Shown here piece by piece: positions 5,521-39,389 of a DNA stretch of 39,389 nt. Numbering within the stretch: position 1 is the stretch's first letter; each line of letters opens with the position of its first letter. This DNA is from Escherichia phage vB_EcoP-Ro103C3lw: sequence record MN067430, one strand, 5' to 3'. The position numbers and the translations under genes were made by a program. Under the pieces are notes generated by a model. It was not told the DNA's origin. It did not search any database and saw only the letters and a list, made by a program, of their open reading frames with translations.

Positions 5521-5976
5521 ATGTTCAACCGTAAACTGAAAGCACGTATCGCATCTCTTGAAGCAACCGTCCAGCGTCAGGACCGCAACCTTGAGCTGGC
5601 TAACCGGGAGCACTCACGACTGAGGGCCAAGATTCAGAAGGCTGAAGAGAAACGTGAAGTCGACCCATTCCGTGTGAAGCGCATGGTCGGCCTGAAGTTC
5701 AAGGCGCTGTTCAATGGTCTATACCAGCCTACTGAGTTCAAGACCGGACCGGGGCCGTGTGGCAAGACAGTTACGCACTTCACCACGAGTCGGACCGAGC
5801 GTGAGCTGACCATCCACCAGCACCACACGGATGGCTCTCAGAAGGACTTCGAGTATCGACTGAGTGACATCGACGGTCGCATCCAGTACGACTACGAGAC
5901 CGTGCTAGTCTACGGAGAAGAGGCAGAACGGGAGCGAGCACACTACGTCTTCCTGAGACGTCAACGGTTCGCTTAA
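5521..5976 (+). CDS. Hypothetical protein, about 151 aa, with predicted coiled-coil N-terminus
   Basis: Open frame 5452..5976; ATG 5521 chosen as the most likely start (MFNRKLKARIASLEATVQRQDRNLELANREHSRLRAKIQKAEEKR); no homolog recognised. Confidence 0.5.
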   Translation: MFNRKLKARIASLEATVQRQDRNLELANREHSRLRAKIQKAEEKREVDPFRVKRMVGLKFKALFNGLYQPTEFKTGPGPCGKTVTHFTTSRTERELTIHQHHTDGSQKDFEYRLSDIDGRIQYDYETVLVYGEEAERERAHYVFLRRQRFA

Positions 5977-5994: not shown

Positions 5995-6062
5995 GACTAA
6001 AGGTCGCTGACTTCCAGTGGCCTTCATGATTAACCCTAAACTCAATCACTGGAGATTTAACC

Positions 6063-9459: not shown

Positions 9460-9912
9460 GTGGCTGCATGGACACCAAAACGGGGGCACTCTGTGGGTGC
9501 CTACCGCTCTGGACTTGAGGCCAAGAACCAGCAGTGGCTGGAACAGAACGGCGTCAAAGCGGAGTACGAAAGCCATTATATCAACTATGTGATTCCGGCT
9601 TCCGACCACAAGTATACACCAGACTTCATCCTTCCGAATGGAATAATCGTCGAGACCAAAGGTATCTTCGACAGTGAAGACCGCAAGAAGCATATGCTGG
9701 TGCGCGAGCAACACCCTGAGCTGGACATCCGGTTCGTGTTCTCGTCCTCCCGCTCCAAGCTGTACAAAGGGTCCCCGACCACGTATGGCGCATGGTGCGA
9801 AAAGAACGGCTTTAAGTTTGCCGACAAGTTTATCCCGGTTGAGTGGCTGAAAGAGGCGACTGTACGTCTGCCTTCCGGCATACTCATCCCGAAGAAAGGA
9901 GCTAAGAAATGA
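9460..9912 (+). CDS. gp3: Endonuclease I, Holliday-junction resolvase (T7 gp3 homolog)
   Basis: 150 aa, GTG start; VGAYRSGLE...YVIPASDHKYTPDFILPNGIIVETKG...DRKKHMLVREQHPELDIRFVFSSSRSKLYKGSPTTYG matches T7 gp3. Confidence 0.92.
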   Translation: MAAWTPKRGHSVGAYRSGLEAKNQQWLEQNGVKAEYESHYINYVIPASDHKYTPDFILPNGIIVETKGIFDSEDRKKHMLVREQHPELDIRFVFSSSRSKLYKGSPTTYGAWCEKNGFKFADKFIPVEWLKEATVRLPSGILIPKKGAKK

Positions 9913-12917: not shown

Positions 12918-12972
12918 ACTCAAGGCCATTCACATCGAGTGGTCTTTATGATTAGACTATAGGAGATTAACC

Positions 12973-17273: not shown

Positions 17274-17546
17274 ATGGCAATTAAAGTCATTGATGAAACA
17301 ATCAATCAACTCGTTGAAGAACGACTCAAGGTCCCTGCCTTCTCCGAGTCAGCCATTCAGTTCCTGCACATCCTGTTCAACGCAAGCTATGCGTCTAAGC
17401 TGGGTGTCATCAACGACCTGAAGGCTGCTGGCTACAGTGAAGGCTACATCGCAGGCTTTATCGGTGGTCTTCAGTATTGTTCAGACACTCTGGACTCTGC
17501 GGTCGCTAAGCGTCAAAGCCTGAAGGACAACGTACAGTTCGACTAA
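17274..17546 (+). CDS. gp6.5-like hypothetical protein
   Basis: 90 aa; SD agaggag; position-based assignment. Confidence 0.6.
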   Translation: MAIKVIDETINQLVEERLKVPAFSESAIQFLHILFNASYASKLGVINDLKAAGYSEGYIAGFIGGLQYCSDTLDSAVAKRQSLKDNVQFD

Positions 17547-32200: not shown

Positions 32201-33176
32201 GACGAACTACCTGTTAGACGCCGGACGTCAAGGCTTCTTGTCTGACATCGTGGAACATAGTCTGACTGGCAGTAAGCGTAAGTTCGATGACCGTTGGTTG
32301 AAGACTGCCGGTATCTCCGCTGACCAGTGGAAGGGCATTAAGTCCCTAATCCGTGAGTCGGTGACTCGTGGTCCAGATGGGAAGTACACCATCAAGGACA
32401 AGAAAGCGTTTAGTCAGGACCCAAGGGCGATGGACCTCTGGCGTATGGGTGACACCATCGCTGATGAGACCCTGCTCCGTCCGCACAAGCTGAGCAACAT
32501 GGACGCCAAGGCTTACGGTCCTCTCGCTAAGACTGTCTTGCAGTTTAAGAACTTCGTTATCAAGTCTATCAACGGTCGAACCATGCGTACCTTCTACAAT
32601 GCCACCAAGAACAACCGAGCTATGGATGCTGCATTGTCAACGGTTATGTCTATGGGTCTGGCTGGGATGTACTACATGGCTCAGGCGCACATCAAGGCAT
32701 ACGCTATGCAGGACGGTCGTGACCGTGAGTACCTCAAGCAGGCCCTGAACCCGACGATGATTGGCTATGCGGCTCTGTCCCGTAGCTCTCACCTCGGTGG
32801 TCCTCTTGGGGTCGCCAACATTCTGGGTGGCATCGCTGGGTATGAGGACACTAAGTTGCTCCGTTCGTCTATCCTTCCGCGCTCACCTACCGAGAAGCCT
32901 GAACGTGCCATTTCCTATGGTGCTGCTAAGAGCGACCCGGTTATGAACGTGGTAGGCAACTTCCTTGAGCAGGTCCCAGCTTTCGGCTACGCTGCTAACG
33001 TTGGCGCTTCGGCTTACAACTTGGCTGGCTACCTCAAGTCTGATACCCGTGTGAACGAGCGGGACTACATGACCGGGATGTATAACACCTTCCGCGAGCT
33101 GGTCCCGAACGACCCAATCACTCAGAAGCTCCTGCTGGGAACCTTTGAGGAACAGGGGATTCACATCAAGGATTAA
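29280..33176 (+). CDS. gp16: Internal virion protein D (T7 gp16 homolog)
   Basis: 1298 aa; from about residue 190 onward collinear with T7 gp16 (RSTWFGFGGAAEAE, PTRWNNHKWSREELDQIR, AGVIGAGVDPL, RLEARETARN, DLVRSPTGMQSGASGK, GTYVPHVY, SRPEVKARVDE, AYGISH, NGDIAIM, FFAKNAYMG, NGTTNYLLDA, DPRAMDLWR, LRPHK, ALSRSS); N-terminal ~150 aa not recognisably similar. Confidence 0.93.
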   Translation: MATRGVRNANPGNIRKSKDQWEGAVGDDGAFVIFDSPESGVRALAKNLQSYGRQGYDSIEKIITRWAPPSENDTQSYINSVVAATGIPATQSIDLSNPDVLASLSEAIGYHETGSRYDPEVYKTGVSRALSGAGGITPKTPPVSANVFDALTEGLKSKPKVALGENLPGVTGMNIEGQAPEAPNESFGEMFYKSTGETLDQRADRSTWFGFGGAAEAEVKNSMVGVAIRAGQTEDSLDVIGDVFNPTRWNNHKWSREELDQIRNAGVLPQYYGVITGGSPQNLTELINLALENQKLDAEKAKAGSGAQLAAGVIGAGVDPLTYVPIAGQVGKGGKLVNKMFTVAAQSGALAGASELARTSVAGGDAHVAEAIMGGALFAGGMTAIGDAIGKALGKSTNEFAGPATRLEARETARNVDGQDLSRLPIREGEETFSHQGVKFADVPNEPGSVRLEDGSILIGENPLNPKTRQVFDEVIEPERAAAGVNLGGLTEIGLKLLRSENPEIRGLAADLVRSPTGMQSGASGKIGTTASDVFERLRAVDHRFYNDIDDAVTQALRDPYFQTNFNRDTGAFRQDIYQRVALAIEDGSGNLKAELTPGELKVYDLLKNQFDAKREMMENPAMFGRVDAQSIFPGSRFKGTYVPHVYSNQMKQLFINELGSPEALQEAIKKSWLTSYASRPEVKARVDEALLEANPNLKPEELAAAVDKYANDKAYGISHTDLFERSSVMEENINGLVGLENNNFLEARNLFDSDMSIILPNGQPFNVNSLREWDMDKIVPAYNRRVNGDIAIMAGTGKTTKEMKDTVETMMNRAGDDGKLKGEVATLRDTLKILTGRARRDGADDAAFSTVMRTMTDLSFFAKNAYMGVQNLTEIGGMLARGNVRAMLHGIPMFRDLAFRNKKMGASEIKDLHNVVFGKELDDSIRPSKQDVIDRLRAYSDLSKPVATALGSVKYYTGELAVRSPFTKVLNGTTNYLLDAGRQGFLSDIVEHSLTGSKRKFDDRWLKTAGISADQWKGIKSLIRESVTRGPDGKYTIKDKKAFSQDPRAMDLWRMGDTIADETLLRPHKLSNMDAKAYGPLAKTVLQFKNFVIKSINGRTMRTFYNATKNNRAMDAALSTVMSMGLAGMYYMAQAHIKAYAMQDGRDREYLKQALNPTMIGYAALSRSSHLGGPLGVANILGGIAGYEDTKLLRSSILPRSPTEKPERAISYGAAKSDPVMNVVGNFLEQVPAFGYAANVGASAYNLAGYLKSDTRVNERDYMTGMYNTFRELVPNDPITQKLLLGTFEEQGIHIKD

Positions 33177-33240: not shown

Positions 33241-35331
33241 ATGGCTAATACCACTATTACGCAGTTCCCTACTGGGCAGACTCAGTACAAGATTAACTTT
33301 GACTATCTGGCCCGGACCTTCGTGGTGGTCACTTTAATCAACAGTGCTGACCAAGCGGACAACAAGGTCCTGACGGTAGGTAATGACTATCGGTTCATCA
33401 CTGCCACGACTATTGAGCTTCTGGCCGACCAGACGGGCTTCGATATTGTCCAGATTCACCGCTTCACGGGGACCGGACTTCTGGTCAGCTTCCGTGACGG
33501 CTCGGTCCTGACTGCCAACGACTTAACCACGTCCGAGCTTCAGGCTATCCATATCGCCGAGGAGGGCCGAGACCAGACTTCAGGTCTTGCCAAGCAGTAT
33601 GCGGACCAAGCGATTGCTGCTGGTACTGACGCTCAGTCTATCTTAGACAACATCATCAAGATGGGAAAGAACGGTTACACTCCAGTTGGCTCCTTTGAGG
33701 CCGGGGCGACCGTCAACCTTCAGAATGACGCTGTTCAGTTTGGCACTGGTGCTGCTATTACTCACTGGCGCTGGGAAGGCACACTACCTAAAGTCGTTCC
33801 ACCTAACTCGACACCAACGTCTACTGGTGGTATCGGTCACGGTAAGTGGATTGACGTAACGGACGCGACTCTGCGTGGTGCGCTGGCTCAACTGACTGGT
33901 GCCTCTCTGGTCATGACCTCTAACGGTAAGACCGTGGAGGAGCGCCTGTCTGGGACCTTACGTGTCGTGGACTCGGTGAAGGACTTGGAGTCGCTGGTTC
34001 CGCAGCAGGACGGTGAGATTGTCATCGCTCGTTGGGCTGCTTATCCGAAGCTGGTGGGCGTCAACTGTGGTCCGGTGGGCGGCGGTATGTTCATCGCCTA
34101 CAACGACAATCCGGCAGTCCCTAAAGATGGTGGCTTCTTTGTGGACAGTCCGTCTCCGACCCTTAAGTGGCGACGTATGGCTGAGAACACAGGCTATTAT
34201 CCGGTTGCTTGGTGGGGCGTAATTCCTGATCACTATACCGATAACGCTGACAACATCACTCGTGCGCACAACTTTGCGAAGCGAGCTTGGCGTGTTCTTC
34301 AGTACGACTTCGGTACATACCTGACGTCCAAGGCTGTTCCAATCTACAGTCGCATGGGCATCAAGGGGACCGGACGTGCTGACGGTACTGTCATTGCCAA
34401 GACCACGAACGATGCGTTCAACCTGCTCAAAGCTGACGGCACTGTAGGTGAGGCCGTGGATGCTCTGGCAGTAATGGTCCCTGATGCTTACGACCGAGCG
34501 TCTCCTTACATGGACAGCTTCTGTATCCACGGACGTATCGAGGACATTATGTTTAAACGTAATGGTCTCTCAGAGGCTAACTACAACACCATGCGTCCTC
34601 AGTATGGTCTGTTCATGAACAAGGGTGGCTCACCTGTCCTCAAGCATACCAACTTCGAGGGTGCGTATATCGGCATTCGAGCCTACGTGTGCTTCTCGTC
34701 AACCATCTCTGCGGTCGCCACAACCAACTGGCGCGGCAAGGGTTACGCTGGTCTTTATATTGAGGACTACCGTGATGGCAGCTTGATGTCTTCAGGCACG
34801 AGTAATGACATCCGTCTGTTCCAATCCCGAGGGTATCAGCATGGGGTAAGCATGTCCCGTATGCAGTACACCACGATGATCAACTGCTCTGTAGAGGAGT
34901 GCTTCAAGTCTCCGGGTGAAACTTACGCTTACGCCTATAAGTTCATCGACCCGTTCTCTATTCATCTCTCCACCTGCGCGACTGAGTTCGTTGAAGGCGG
35001 TCAGATTCAGATTACAGGCTTCGCTAACCCCGGATTCAGACCGTCCATCACTATCACCGAATACTTTGCGGTTGACCAGCAGAACCCTGCTACGGCCCAC
35101 AATATCATCGACATTGATAATGGTGGTGTTGCACGGTGTACGGTCAAGGTTATTGGTGGTGACTGGACGCATGACCCTCGCACACCTAACGTGGGTTCCC
35201 CTAGAGCTGCTGGTTCTGGGACTGTAGTCACTACTATCGGGACCACTGGCGCTGAAGGTCCTAACTGGCTGCTGAGCGGTGGTGCTAAAGTGGTTGACAT
35301 CGAGAACGCTACGAACACACGGAGTTCTTAA
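33241..35331 (+). CDS. gp17: Tail fibre protein (T7 gp17 homolog; N-terminal anchor conserved, C-terminal region divergent)
   Basis: 696 aa; N-terminal ~150 aa ([14 protein letters not shown]...VLT.GNDYRF...[12 protein letters not shown]...IHIAEEGRD) matches T7 gp17; the remaining ~550 aa show no T7-like similarity. Confidence 0.9.
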
Positions 35332-35371
35332 ACTTTGGGTCAAGGACGACCCGTTTAACAATGGAGGTATT

Positions 35372-35566
35372 ATGATTGAGTTCGACTTCAAGAATGAGGT
35401 CCTCAAAGCCTCGCCTATCGTCGGGACCGCTGCGGCTGATGGTGCCAGTCGGTTCTTCTTTGGGTTAACACTCAACGAATGGTTCTACGTCGCTGCCATC
35501 GCGTACACCGTGGTGCAGATTGGCGTCCTAATTTACAAGACGATTAAGAGCGGAGGTAAGACATGA
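35372..35566 (+). CDS. gp17.5: Class II holin (T7 gp17.5 homolog)
   Basis: 64 aa from ATG 35372 (SD ggaggt); KASPIVGTAAADGASRFFFGLTLNEWFYVAAIAYTVVQIG is near-identical to the T7 holin. Confidence 0.9.
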   Translation: MIEFDFKNEVLKASPIVGTAAADGASRFFFGLTLNEWFYVAAIAYTVVQIGVLIYKTIKSGGKT

Positions 35567-35826
35567 CGCAGATGGACTTAGAGAAGTTCCTGTTAATGCT
35601 GGACACCGAACGTGCTCGACTAATGCTGCAAGACCTGCGGGATGACTCTAAGCGTTCGCCCCAGCTCTACAACTCCATCGAGAAGCTGCTGGCCCGTCAC
35701 AACTTTGTGTTAAGCAAGGTGTCGGTGGACGAGAAGCAGTTGGCAGACATGGAGGCGCTGAACCGAGAGTACGACAAGGTTCTCTCAGCGACCGAGGATA
35801 ATGACACCGGGTATGGTGTCCAGTAA
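35563..35826 (+). CDS. gp18: Terminase small subunit (T7 gp18 homolog)
   Basis: 87 aa; F.LMLDT..A..ML.DL.D..RSPQLYN.I.KLL.RH.F matches T7 gp18; ATG overlaps the holin stop (ATGA). Confidence 0.88.
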   Translation: MTQMDLEKFLLMLDTERARLMLQDLRDDSKRSPQLYNSIEKLLARHNFVLSKVSVDEKQLADMEALNREYDKVLSATEDNDTGYGVQ

Positions 35827-35882
35827 GTGTTAGACTCAAGGTCATCTATTGGTGGCCTTTATGATTAACACTAGGAGGTGGT

Positions 35883-36254
35883 ATGGTATCGGAAGATGTT
35901 ATAAAGGCTAACGTTCAAGCTGCTCGTAAATTACGAGAGGAACGGGAGGAACGAAGAAAGAGGACTAAGCGCATTTCGCAGATAAAGAGCCTATATGGTC
36001 TCACGCTTGAACAGTTCGAGGACCTGATGGACTCGGTGGGAAGCTCATGCGAGATTTACAAGACTCCGCTTAAAGTAGGTGGGAAGAAAGGAGATACAGA
36101 CTCTGCGTGTATTGACCACTGTCATTCCACTGGGGTGATTAGAGGGGTTTTATGCCGCAAGTGCAATGCAGCAATTGGCGCACTGGGAGATACTACATCT
36201 AGTGTCCAGCGGGCTGTTTCATACCTAGAGAAGACGCTTGTACGTCGATTCTGA
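35883..36254 (+). CDS. Endonuclease VII-family protein (recombination endonuclease VII-like zinc/HNH-type nuclease)
   Basis: 123 aa; SLYGLTLEQFEDLM....SCEIY..........CIDHCHSTGVIRGVLCRKCNAAIGALGD fits the Endonuclease_7 family pattern (YG.T.E.Y......C..C.....DH.H.TG..RG.LC..CN...G); SD aggagg; no gene at this position in T7. Confidence 0.75.
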   Translation: MVSEDVIKANVQAARKLREEREERRKRTKRISQIKSLYGLTLEQFEDLMDSVGSSCEIYKTPLKVGGKKGDTDSACIDHCHSTGVIRGVLCRKCNAAIGALGDTTSSVQRAVSYLEKTLVRRF

Positions 36255-36272
36255 GAAATGAGGAGGGCAACT

Positions 36273-36722
36273 ATGCTCAAACTTTTACGACAGGCCGTTC
36301 CTTGGCTGGTGGCGGGACTCCTGTTCTGCTCAGGTTACTGGGTGGCAGACAATAAGTGGGAGGCGAAAGTAAGCAATGAGTACATCACGAAACTTGAGGC
36401 ACGAGAGAATCAACGGGCTGCTGTCCAAGGTGAAATCGACAAAGTGTCAGCCGAGTGGCAAGACAAGATGTCCGCGCTGGAAGGCTCTACTGATAGGATT
36501 ATTGCTGACCTTAACCGCGATAACAAGCGGCTGCGCATCCGTGTCAAACCCACCAGTGGAACAGTCCAGACTGACGGTCGATGCGTCATTGATGGTTACG
36601 CCGAACTTGACGAACGAGATGCTAAGCGTCTTATCACCATCGGACTGAAAGGTGACGAATGGATTAAGGCCCTCCAGAAGACCGTGAGAGCCATGCAGCA
36701 AGAGAAGGAGGTGAAACCTTGA
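36273..36722 (+). CDS. gp18.5: i-spanin (Rz-like, T7 gp18.5 homolog)
   Basis: [19 protein letters not shown]-terminal TM helix; [42 protein letters not shown]...[10 protein letters not shown] match T7 gp18.5; ATG 36273 with SD gaggagg. Confidence 0.88.
36376..36648 (+). CDS. gp18.7: o-spanin (Rz1-like, T7 gp18.7 homolog), embedded in the +1 frame of the i-spanin gene
   Basis: [23 protein letters not shown]: lipoprotein signal with lipobox Cys; SVDASLMV.PNLT.EML.V matches T7 gp18.7. Confidence 0.85.
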   Translation: MSTSRNLRHERINGLLSKVKSTKCQPSGKTRCPRWKALLIGLLLTLTAITSGCASVSNPPVEQSRLTVDASLMVTPNLTNEMLSVLSPSD

Positions 36723-38482
36723 GTCAAGACTTAGCGGCGCGTCAGGCGCTTATGACTGCCCGTATGAAGGCAGACTTCGTGTTCTTCCTGTTCGTCCTGT
36801 GGAAAGCTCTGTCCCTCCCGGTCCCGACTCGCTGTCAGATTGACATGGCGAAGAAACTATCGGCTGGGGACAACAGGCGTTTCATCCTACAGGCGTTCCG
36901 TGGTATCGGGAAGTCCTTCATTACGTGTGCCTTCGTGGTCTGGAAGCTGTGGAATAACCCGGACTTGAAGTTCATGATTGTGTCGGCCTCAAAGGAACGT
37001 GCTGACGCTAACTCCATCTTCATCAAGCGAATCATCGACCTGATGCCTCAGCTCCAAGAGTTGAAGCCTAAGCAGGGCCAGCGAGACGCTGTAATCAGCT
37101 TTGACGTAGGGCCAGCCAAGCCAGACCACTCACCTTCGGTTAAGTCCGTGGGTATCACTGGTCAGCTTACTGGTAGCCGTGCGGACATCCTGATTGCCGA
37201 TGACGTGGAGGTTCCGGGTAACTCAGCGACTCAGGCTGCGAGAGACCGACTGTCCGAGCTGGTAAAAGAGTTCGACGCAATCCTGAAGCCGGGCGGTACG
37301 GTTATCTATCTGGGTACTCCTCAGACCGAGATGACCTTGTATCGTCAGCTTGAGGGTCGCGGCTACTCTACGACTATCTGGCCTGCCCGGTATCCACGCG
37401 ATGAGAAGGACTGGAAGTCTTACGGAGACCGTCTGGCTCCGATGCTTCAGGCTGAGCTTGAGTCCGACCCTGAGGGCTACTACTGGCTCCCAACGGATGA
37501 GGTGCGCTTTGATGACGAGGACCTGAAGGAACGTGAGTTGTCCTACGGTAAGGCTGGCTTCGCTCTCCAGTTCATGCTCAACCCTAACCTAGGGGATGCT
37601 GAGAAGTACCCGCTGAAGCTCCGTGACCTTATCGTAGCGGACTTGGACCCTGAGTCCAGCCCTATGGTCTACCAGTGGCTCCCGAACCTCCAGAACAAGC
37701 GGGATGACGTTCCTAACGTGGGACTCATGGGTGACACCTACCACACGTATCAAACTGTAGGTTCTGCTTTCAGTTCGTACACCCAGAAGATTCTGGTCAT
37801 TGACCCTAGTGGTCGTGGTAAGGATGAGACGGGCTATGCGGTACTGTATCAGCTCAACGGCTACATCTTCGTGATGGAAGCTGGTGGTATGCGCGGTGGC
37901 TATGAGGACTCTACGCTGGAAGCTCTGGCGAAGATTGGGCGCAAGTGGAAGATTAACGAGTACGTCATTGAGGGTAACTTCGGTGATGGTATGTACCTCG
38001 AACTATTCAAGCCTGTAGCGGCCCGTATCCACCCGGCAGCAGTGACCGAGGTCAAGAGCAAGGGTCAGAAGGAACTACGCATCTGCGACGTTCTGGAGCC
38101 TATCATGGGGTCTCACCGACTCATCGTGAATGCTTCAACCATTGTGTCTGACTACCAGACAGCCTCTGATAAGGATGGCGTCCGTAACCCTATCTACTCT
38201 CTGTTCTACCAGATGACCCGTATCAGCCGTGAACGTGGAGCCTTGGCACACGATGACCGACTTGATGCGCTGGCTATCGGTGTACAGTTCTTCGTAGAGT
38301 CTATGGCTAAGGATGCCGTGAAGGGCCAGCGTGAAGTCACCGAGGAGTGGCTGGAGGAGCAGATGGAAGACCCGAAGAAAGGCTTTAAGTCCATCGAGAC
38401 GGACTACTGGGACAATGGGGTACGAGTCCAGTTCAATACAGATGATGACTTGGGCTTAGGGTCCTACGTTCAGTTCCACTAG
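36719..38482 (+). CDS. gp19: Terminase large subunit (T7 gp19 homolog)
   Basis: 587 aa; [120 protein letters not shown]; apparent TTG start after SD aaggaggtg. Confidence 0.96.
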
Positions 38483-39198: not shown

Positions 39199-39389
39199 TC
39201 TCACAGTTCAAGAACCTCAAGTCTCCCCCCATAGGGTCACTCTCAGTCAGACCAAAGGCCCTACCCCTAGACCGAAGGTCTAAACCTAAAGTCTTTGACC
39301 AGAAGTCAGGACCAGAAGTCTACCTCAAGGGCCTATATCTAGTGGTTGGGACCAGAGGTCGGGACTATATGTTGTGTCACTGAGTCTCT
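39199..39389. repeat. Right direct terminal repeat (DTR), 191 bp
   Basis: Exact copy of 1..191. Confidence 0.95.

Follow-up and report, generated by a model that had tools for sequence, protein, structure and literature searches.

The complete genome of Escherichia phage vB_EcoP-Ro103C3lw comprises 39,389 bp with 191-bp direct terminal repeats (DTRs), and this entire stretch is the window analyzed here. The phage, which infects STEC O103, has been described as a new species of Kayfunavirus, with DTRs of this same length, in a paper that is silent on the gene that concerns us (PMC8303462).

The nuclease gene and its surroundings

The open reading frame (ORF) of the original prediction was recovered with exactly its coordinates, strand and length (Table 1). 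Its product is named 'hypothetical protein Ro103_48' (QDH94156.1) in GenBank. As had been proposed, the gene lies between the small terminase and the spanins: it is intergenic, in the spacer separating gp18 from gp18.5. Homologues of the gp18.5 i-spanin are annotated from the second ATG and have 149 aa.

Table 1. Features of the gp18-gp19 region and of the nuclease gene in the vB_EcoP-Ro103C3lw genome.
Feature	Coordinates	Strand	Details
Class II holin	35372-35566	+	
gp18 small terminase	35563-35826	+	PF11123 44.1 bits; phrog_1351 E 5.5e-34
Near-identity tract, proposed mobile cassette (gp18 end, hairpin, RBS, ORF to stop)	35809-36254	+	Comparison of five carrier phages
T7 R18.5-type RNase III processing hairpin	35827-35871	+	7-bp lower stem, internal loop, 9-bp upper stem, 4-nt loop
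Shine-Dalgarno AGGAGG	35873-35878	+	4 nt before ATG of the nuclease
Endonuclease VII-motif (DHHRN) nuclease gene	35883-36254	+	123 aa, ATG start
Long basic N-terminal helix, residues 4-38	35892-35996	+	Predicted; variable, few conserved columns among homologues
First zinc knuckle C56-E-I-Y59	36048-36059	+	Y59 = TAC, base 36058
Catalytic beta-beta-alpha-Me core, residues 76-99, motif CIDHCHSTGVIRGVLCRKCNAAIG	36108-36179	+	D78, H79, H81, R87, N95 and zinc knuckle C91/C94
Native spacer box TACGTCGATTCTGA (consensus CTACGTGaAaTCTGA)	36241-36254	+	Supplies the last codons and stop of the ORF; right junction
gp18.5 i-spanin, own RBS	36261-36268	+	GAGGAGGG
gp18.5 i-spanin	36273-36722	+	PHROG Rz-like spanin E 1.8e-58; 18 nt after nuclease stop
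o-spanin, embedded in i-spanin	36376-36648	+	
gp19 large terminase	starts 36719	+	

The ORF matches the Pfam family PF02945 (Endonuclease_7) with 65.7 bits against a gathering cutoff of 23.6 (E 3.5e-18), over model positions 3-82 of 82, and four PHROG 'endonuclease VII' families match it with E values from 1e-13 to 3e-28. Membership of the Endonuclease_7 family is far beyond chance. The diagnostic motif on which the prediction had been founded corresponds to residues 76-99, and the profile search, which according to the prediction might have placed the protein in a non-nuclease zinc-binding family, returned PF02945 as the sole Pfam match. In an alignment of 63 homologues, residues C56, D78, H79, H81, R87, C91, C94 and N95 are invariant. 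Profile alignment to T4 endonuclease VII (1e7d) places D78/H79/H81/R87/N95 and C91/C94 on T4 D40/H41/H43/R54/N62 and C58/C61, the roles of the catalytic and zinc residues being taken from the literature (PMC6083498). The C-terminal CX2C zinc knuckle is present in this copy as C91 and C94. The upstream C..Y segment, on the other hand, had been mistaken for a family signature. The family pattern is CxxC, and Tyr59 replaces a Cys found in 62 of the 63 homologues.

An AF2 model built on the 63-sequence alignment (mean pLDDT 93.1) contains helices at residues 4-38 (long and basic), 42-51, 92-100 and 105-122 and a beta-hairpin at 74-79 and 86-91 as assigned by DSSP; the two strands and helix 92-100 make up the beta-beta-alpha-Me fold. 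The N-terminal helix 4-38 is presumed, from the model, to be a DNA-recognition or dimerization module. The DHxH sequence starts at residue 78 of 123, and its relative position falls between 0.55 and 0.75 in 63/63 homologues; only 24 residues, forming one helix, follow the Endo VII motif. When the model was compared with the PDB by Foldseek, Hpy99I (probability 1.00) and T4 endonuclease VII (0.96-0.99) were found, with no other meaningful match. A profile search of the PDB likewise placed Hpy99I (E 5.9e-14) slightly closer than T4 endonuclease VII (E 3.6e-12), and it is on the profile search that the residue mapping to the T4 enzyme rests; a single-sequence search of the PDB gave weak matches only (Hpy99I, E 0.0019; T4 endonuclease VII, E 0.56). 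Together these data establish the PF02945 family, the fold and the intact catalytic residues of the ORF. A profile of the nuclease homologues run against all six frames of the genome found no second Endo VII-like gene.

The hairpin upstream of the gene is the unique exact match to the pattern described in Table 1 and folds with -16.7 kcal/mol (z -4.1); its architecture is shared by the equivalents in T7, Pisces and L016. In T7 it aligns with the spacer that separates genes 18 and 18.5 and that holds the RNase III site R18.5. R18.5 has been named as a strong cleavage site (PMC5592923). The conserved leader motif that the original prediction had noticed before the gene is this T7-type hairpin, although it was not recognized as such. 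Similar hairpins are found at about 5995-6031 and 12918-12953, each directly after a phage promoter, and the 5' halves of such hairpins recur at about 2488 and 17323. Phage promoters with the sequence TTAAACCCTCACTATAGGA are located at 33173 and 38576, with none between. Without a promoter of its own, the nuclease gene is probably expressed from the late polycistronic message. A scan for sigma-70 promoters and terminators gave counts equal to the shuffle expectation, and an Rfam scan of 35300-36800 (E up to 1) matched no intron and no other RNA family.

Distribution among relatives and borders of the cassette

The synteny comparison suggested with the prediction was carried out with T7, phage Pisces and metagenomic relatives. 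T7 has only a 94-nt spacer at gp18/gp18.5 and, as had been stated, no gene at this position. Pisces has a 101-nt spacer and no nuclease gene despite gp18 and gp19 that are 98.9% and 99.1% identical to those of vB_EcoP-Ro103C3lw and flanks that are 98% identical. The gene was found in 0/23 IMG/VR contigs with a gp18 identity of at least 87%; 22 of these have a spacer of 92-111 nt and one carries an unrelated ORF upstream of the hairpin. Of the 250 phage records that match 35300-37000 at the DNA level, U8 is the sole one that covers the nuclease gene.

Where the gene does occur, it occurs in the same slot. Every detectable homologue of at least 41% aa identity occupies the gp18/gp18.5 spacer: the P0001 group (99%), L014 (60%), L015 (59%), Kvp1 gene 18.2 (51%) and PcaP1EGY (41%). 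The slot is thus occupied in Kayfunavirus, Berlinvirus and Pektosvirus, by strongly diverged alleles. The gp18 of L015 is 94% identical and the gp19 of L014 94.5% identical to those of vB_EcoP-Ro103C3lw, against nuclease identities of 59% and 60%, so the nuclease has had a history separate from that of its flanks. In the Kvp1 paper, 18.2 was counted among the regions dissimilar to phage Berlin. Such sporadic presence and absence at a fixed site among close relatives is what is expected of a homing gene.

To delimit the shared segment we compared five carrier backgrounds (vB_EcoP-Ro103C3lw, U8, L010/L011, L012 and L013). Variable sites amount to 44/256 nt (17%) on the left, 5/446 nt (1.1%) within the tract at 35809-36254 and 55/328 nt (17%) on the right (binomial P for cassette versus flanks about 6e-29). 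Divergence resumes at the first base past the nuclease stop codon; the left edge cannot be placed more finely than 35809-35845 because this stretch is conserved in all relatives. Genome-wide, vB_EcoP-Ro103C3lw is about 83% identical to U8 (83-94% to Pisces), while over the cassette the two carriers are 99.6% identical, with 2 differences in 490 nt. The ORF has three variable sites across the five backgrounds: one synonymous change, D50H in U8 and C59Y in vB_EcoP-Ro103C3lw. For dN/dS, one synonymous and two non-synonymous changes are too few to demonstrate purifying selection. Since the hairpin, ribosome-binding site and ORF are nearly identical in phages that are otherwise diverged, they have moved recently between them as a discrete unit, another property expected of homing genes.

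The junctions were delimited by pairwise alignment and by direct reading of the sequences. In all occupied alleles the left junction falls directly after the hairpin, between ...GGCCTTTATGATTAACAC and TAGGAGG...ATG, and the right junction falls inside the box CTACGTGaAaTCTGA, just before the gp18.5 ribosome-binding site. The Shine-Dalgarno sequence is kept as (T)AGGAGG or GGAGG in all of them. The box closes each of the endo VII alleles at its 3' end and recurs in every empty allele, those of T7 and Pisces included, and is for this reason assigned to the native spacer; between the two junctions the cassette replaces a variable stretch of 14-24 nt. We considered whether the empty alleles hold a 3' remnant of the ORF left by deletion. 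Local alignments of empty spacers upstream of the box with the ORF did not score above shuffles in 37/40 comparisons, haplotype C alone reaching p 0.002-0.02, uncorrected. With scores at shuffle level, the deletion relic was rejected, and the homology between spacer and ORF is limited to the 14-17-nt box.

The hairpin itself differs slightly between allele classes. Its top measures 8-9 nt in 10/10 occupied alleles and in 1/27 others (Fisher p 3e-8, from lineages that are few and non-independent); the upper stem has 9 bp here and 10 bp in T7, with the architecture of the RNA fold unchanged. The empty allele L035 is the one that also has a short top. On account of the lineage structure, this exception and the unchanged architecture, we set the short top aside as functional evidence.

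Other genes have entered the same region. In Enterobacter phage vB_EclP_26 an unrelated HNH_3 gene starts at the identical left junction, several relatives carry HNH_3 inserts of ~435 nt at the gp18.5/gp19 junction, and ORF48 of Hafnia phage Ca sits between 18.5 and 19 (PMC8861465). The gp18-gp18.5-gp19 region is a recurrent landing zone for homing-type genes.

Function of the nuclease

The comparisons above document the position of the gene, its presence/absence polymorphism and the transfer of a near-identical cassette between diverged phage genomes. They bear out the proposal that this is an acquired, free-standing nuclease, its presence being sporadic and its near-identical cassette sharply bounded in diverged backgrounds. 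Acquisition of the gene, as opposed to core status, is supported, although sequence alone does not prove an insertion over an ancient deletion. Of the two functions originally offered, a homing-type endonuclease is the better one, in view of the cassette transfer and of a slot common to an unrelated HNH gene. We consider it probable (roughly 0.75) that the gene encodes a free-standing DHHRN homing endonuclease carried on a cassette of ~370-446 bp in the Kayfunavirus gp18/gp18.5 spacer.

The other function, a second structure-specific nuclease that would resolve junctions or branches in the manner of T4 endonuclease VII and aid concatemer processing, draws on the catalytic core shared with T4 gp49 and on the location of the gene between both terminase genes. 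It has become very improbable. The genome encodes a full-length endonuclease I at 9460-9912 (PF05367, 268.8 bits), as had been noted. Packaging does not need the nuclease, because T7, Pisces (with its near-identical gp18 and gp19) and all 23 sampled relatives do without it. The 24 residues past the motif provide no counterpart of the ~90-residue C-terminal part of T4 endonuclease VII, so that the layout of such a resolvase, an N-terminal catalytic domain with a long C-terminal domain in a core gene that is the sole resolvase of its phage, is not seen here; in structure as in sequence, the protein is matched best by the sequence-specific enzyme Hpy99I. The DHHRN family, defined around the free-standing homing endonuclease F-CphI (Fang et al. 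2018, Mob DNA, PMC6083498), divides along the same lines. Its resolvase clade has N-terminal motifs and belongs to phages without endonuclease I, while its endonuclease clade has C-terminal motifs and includes restriction enzymes of the Hpy99I type and members encoded in introns, besides those of podoviruses, all of which carry endonuclease I (PMC6083498). With its C-terminal motif and an endonuclease I in the same genome, the vB_EcoP-Ro103C3lw nuclease fits the endonuclease clade on everything measured, and since endonuclease I is full length and the motif C-terminal, it is probably not the resolvase of the phage. Proximity to both terminase genes might also recall HK97 gp74, an HNH factor needed for terminase cutting, as HNH genes beside terminases are packaging cofactors in cos phages (cited in PMC8861465). 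Here, however, there is no PF01844 HNH match beside PF02945, packaging proceeds from direct terminal repeats of 191 bp and not from cos ends, and gp19, of the T7 type, already carries an RNase H-like nuclease domain (PF22530); the absence of the gene from close relatives with near-identical terminases effectively refutes a role of this kind. A nuclease that benefits the phage by attacking the DNA of the host or of co-infecting competitors (marker exclusion), and that spreads by ordinary recombination, is harder to set apart. The evidence for lateral transfer fits it equally, a sharply bounded tract could also form when an accessory gene is exchanged by ordinary homologous recombination, with no drive by a nuclease, and the rarity of the cassette (1/250 records, 0/23 IMG/VR contigs) suits a conditionally useful gene as well as a selfish one; if homing were efficient, one might expect to meet the cassette more often. 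We nevertheless regard this as unlikely, as an independent sign of benefit is absent, and it is a hallmark of homing that strongly diverged alleles keep strictly to one slot and that an unrelated HNH gene uses this slot too. Exclusion and homing are not mutually exclusive.

A further alternative concerns the copy in vB_EcoP-Ro103C3lw only and is compatible with a homing cassette in the rest of the family: the gene would be a homing endonuclease by descent, crippled or non-functional here through C59Y and persisting as a passenger. We view this as a real though lesser possibility. The Tyr at residue 59 is the only one among the 63 homologues; within the 90% cluster, Cys59 is kept in 8/9 members. 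U8 and four metagenomic cassette copies have TGC, not TAC, at this codon, and all other cassette copies compared keep the Cys, so the N-terminal CX2-4C knuckle is a property of the gene lineage that this copy does not share. In the profile alignment to 1e7d, Tyr59 maps onto Cys26 of T4 endonuclease VII (C23-L-I-C26), which is one of its four zinc ligands (PMC6083498). Replacement of a zinc ligand by the bulky Tyr is, at the least, suspicious for nuclease function, and the copy may be weakened or inactive. Both ORF differences between vB_EcoP-Ro103C3lw and U8 are non-synonymous, and in another member of the 90% cluster a different invariant residue is changed (Y114C), which suggests that individual copies decay sporadically. 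Against this, mutants C23S and C61S of the T4 enzyme are dead, but C26S and C58S are active singly and dead only as the double mutant (PMC6083498, secondary citation); because the equivalent C26S mutant stayed active, the effect of C59Y is uncertain either way. The remainder of the ORF is intact with every catalytic residue present, and AF2 modeled the fold confidently, but substitutions of this kind have little effect on AF2 models. Base 36058 may be a sequencing error, yet the identical protein sequence is also found in a Logan assembly.

If the gene is a homing endonuclease, the features of the locus suggest how the cassette would propagate. Lacking its own promoter, it would be transcribed late, as part of the class III message that starts at the gene-17 promoter and at promoters upstream of it; RNase III would cleave this message in the hairpin directly before the gene, and the nuclease would be translated from a strong ribosome-binding site that belongs to the gene itself. 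When a carrier and a related phage infect the same cell, we infer, the enzyme would recognize a specific sequence in the cassette-less allele and cut it there, within or close to the spacer that runs from the hairpin to the CTACGTGaAaTCTGA box. Repair by the T7-type recombination system would follow, with the cassette-bearing genome as template, the end of gp18 and the hairpin serving as left homology arm and the box with the gp18.5 RBS and start as right arm. Carriers would be immune because the cassette splits the spacer, holding its halves about 365 bp apart. A variant of this scheme, to which we give little credence, has the enzyme target the conserved DNA of the R18.5 hairpin and gp18.5 leader box. 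As an inverted repeat, this DNA could adopt a cruciform form, and an Endo VII-type active site might recognize it by its structure in addition to its sequence, allowing carriers to cut and out-compete co-infecting cassette-less Studiervirinae of several genera. If true, it would explain the fidelity to one slot across three genera, the shortened hairpin tops (10/10 occupied alleles) and the travelling of the hairpin with the cassette.

On the homing endonuclease reading, QDH94156.1 and QOI58470.1 can be named free-standing homing endonucleases of the DHHRN family, with Kvp1 gp18.2 as their orthologue by position. The family, its architecture and this positional orthologue are already in the literature and databases; new here are only the annotation of the gene and of its counterpart in U8, the exact limits of the cassette and the replacement of a zinc-ligand Cys. 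The locus offers a clean natural example, with a ~446-bp cassette, borders sharp to the base pair, at least five diverged backgrounds, a matched empty allele in Pisces and a zinc-ligand mutant, and is convenient for testing whether T7-like DHHRN members home and what they cut. For phage therapy and biocontrol, the gene counts as a mobile nuclease and not as a virulence or lysogeny gene. The current understanding of T7 packaging and recombination is left unchanged by the nuclease cassette.

Comparison with known systems

T4 endonuclease VII (gp49), a Holliday junction resolvase, shares the zinc-stabilized beta-beta-alpha-Me core and the catalytic residues with the vB_EcoP-Ro103C3lw nuclease. 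It differs in that its motif is N-terminal and followed by about 90 residues, the alignment stopping at T4 residue 73 of 157, and in being the sole resolvase of its phage and a core gene. The vB_EcoP-Ro103C3lw nuclease, in contrast, has a C-terminal motif and is a sporadic gene in a genome that also encodes endonuclease I. The type II restriction endonuclease Hpy99I (PDB 3fc3) is the best match in both sequence and structure, and the match includes the C-terminal 'YLxK' helix, where T4 endonuclease VII does not align. Hpy99I is, however, a bacterial enzyme of 200 aa with a partner methylase, and only its C-terminal ~65 residues align. The free-standing HNH_3 genes of T7-like phages (vB_EclP_26 gp048 and ORF48 of Hafnia phage Ca) resemble the nuclease gene in their same or neighboring slot, similar size and presence/absence polymorphism, but belong to PF13392 and have no detectable sequence relationship to it.

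F-CphI and the endonuclease clade have in common with the vB_EcoP-Ro103C3lw nuclease the CxxC...DHxH...R...CxxCN core (Tyr59 excepted), the C-terminal position of the motif, the small size of the protein, a free-standing phage-borne gene and a phage with T7-type endonuclease I. F-CphI itself belongs to a cyanomyovirus, lies beside the psbA intron and has a mapped cleavage site, whereas the vB_EcoP-Ro103C3lw gene sits in a spacer between two genes, behind an RNase III site, and has a Tyr in place of the second zinc ligand. Gene 18.2 of Kluyvera phage Kvp1 (YP_002308424, 'endonuclease VII') occupies the same slot, in the order gp18, hairpin, gene, box and gp18.5, with the same junction sequences and terminal box and with 51-55% aa identity over the domain; it is listed in Table S1 of Fang et al. 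with the mark 'C' for a C-terminal motif (PMC6083498). It differs in belonging to a Berlinvirus, in its length of 111 aa, as against 123 aa, with a shorter N-terminal helix, and in its intact CxxC. A near-identical counterpart is Phage8_00015 of U8 (QOI58470, 'hypothetical protein'), which lies on the same cassette in the same slot and is 98.4% identical in amino acid sequence. It differs by Cys59, and hence an intact knuckle, and by His50, in a genome of which the rest is about 83% identical to that of vB_EcoP-Ro103C3lw.

RNase III hairpins and phage promoters

The elements located in the window, which is the complete vB_EcoP-Ro103C3lw genome, are listed in the table. The phage RNA polymerase promoter occurs about 11 times, and the copies at 5973 and 12896 immediately precede the hairpins at 5995 and 12918. 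Among the promoter copies located across the window, none was found between 33173 and 38576. The three conserved leader motifs of the original prediction are the three members of the T7-type RNase III hairpin family with the best-conserved 3' halves.

Coordinates of features in the window and, for the box, in compared loci
Feature	Position	Strand	Remarks
T7-type RNase III hairpin family, GACTCAAGGTC...GTGGCCTTTATGATT	~2488-2507, 5995-6031, 12918-12953, 17323-17342, 35827-35871	+	
Phage RNA polymerase promoter, consensus TTAAACCCTCACTATAGGA	2471, 5973, 7630, 8712, 12896, 17189, 20012, 20988, 25458, 33173, 38576	+	
Direct terminal repeats, 191 bp	1-191 and 39199-39389		perfect
HNH_3 gene, 149 aa	28849-29298	+	PF13392, 53.3 bits
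Box CTACGTGaAaTCTGA	36241-36254; T7 locus (L004) ~575-590; all loci L016-L038		directly 5' of gp18.5 ribosome-binding site

The gp18/gp18.5 slot and its flanks

The hairpin preceding the endonuclease VII gene appears to move together with this cassette. Its top (window 35845-35852) is short, 8-9 nt, in all 10 alleles whose gp18/gp18.5 slot is occupied by the endonuclease VII gene and measures 10-18 nt in 26 of the 27 other alleles, the exception being the relative L035. The RNA architecture of the hairpin is kept in every allele, whatever the length of the top. On the other side of the slot, the box is conserved from T7 to Kayfunavirus, in occupied and empty slots alike, and may have a role in gp18.5 translation or in RNA structure.

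Further downstream, the gp19 start codon is apparently a TTG that overlaps the gp18.5 TGA stop (cTTGAgt, window 36719-36722), with GGAGGT 7 nt upstream. Read from this TTG, gp19 is 587 aa long, the same as in the close relative Pisces, which lacks the cassette, and in the cassette carrier U8.

Other homing-type genes and a second altered nuclease copy

P0126, a further near-identical version of the nuclease from the window protein's cluster, has the substitution Y114C. The affected residue is invariant across the 63 aligned homologues, and this may be a second case of decay in an individual copy. In one IMG/VR relative (L023, 1864-2350) an additional ORF of ~160 aa (MAIKRTLMDF...) is inserted after the gp18 stop, ahead of the hairpin, and inspection by eye found no kinship to nucleases.

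The HNH_3 gene, located between gp15 and gp16, is a second free-standing homing-type gene of the window. U8 also carries it; Pisces and the T7-type gene order lack it. Several relatives (L005, L028, L031, L035) carry inserts of ~435 nt at the gp18.5/gp19 junction, one gene downstream of the gp18/gp18.5 slot, and this junction is a second hot spot for homing endonuclease genes. In L005 the inserted DNA is an HNH_3 gene, an organisation also seen at this junction in Hafnia phage Ca.
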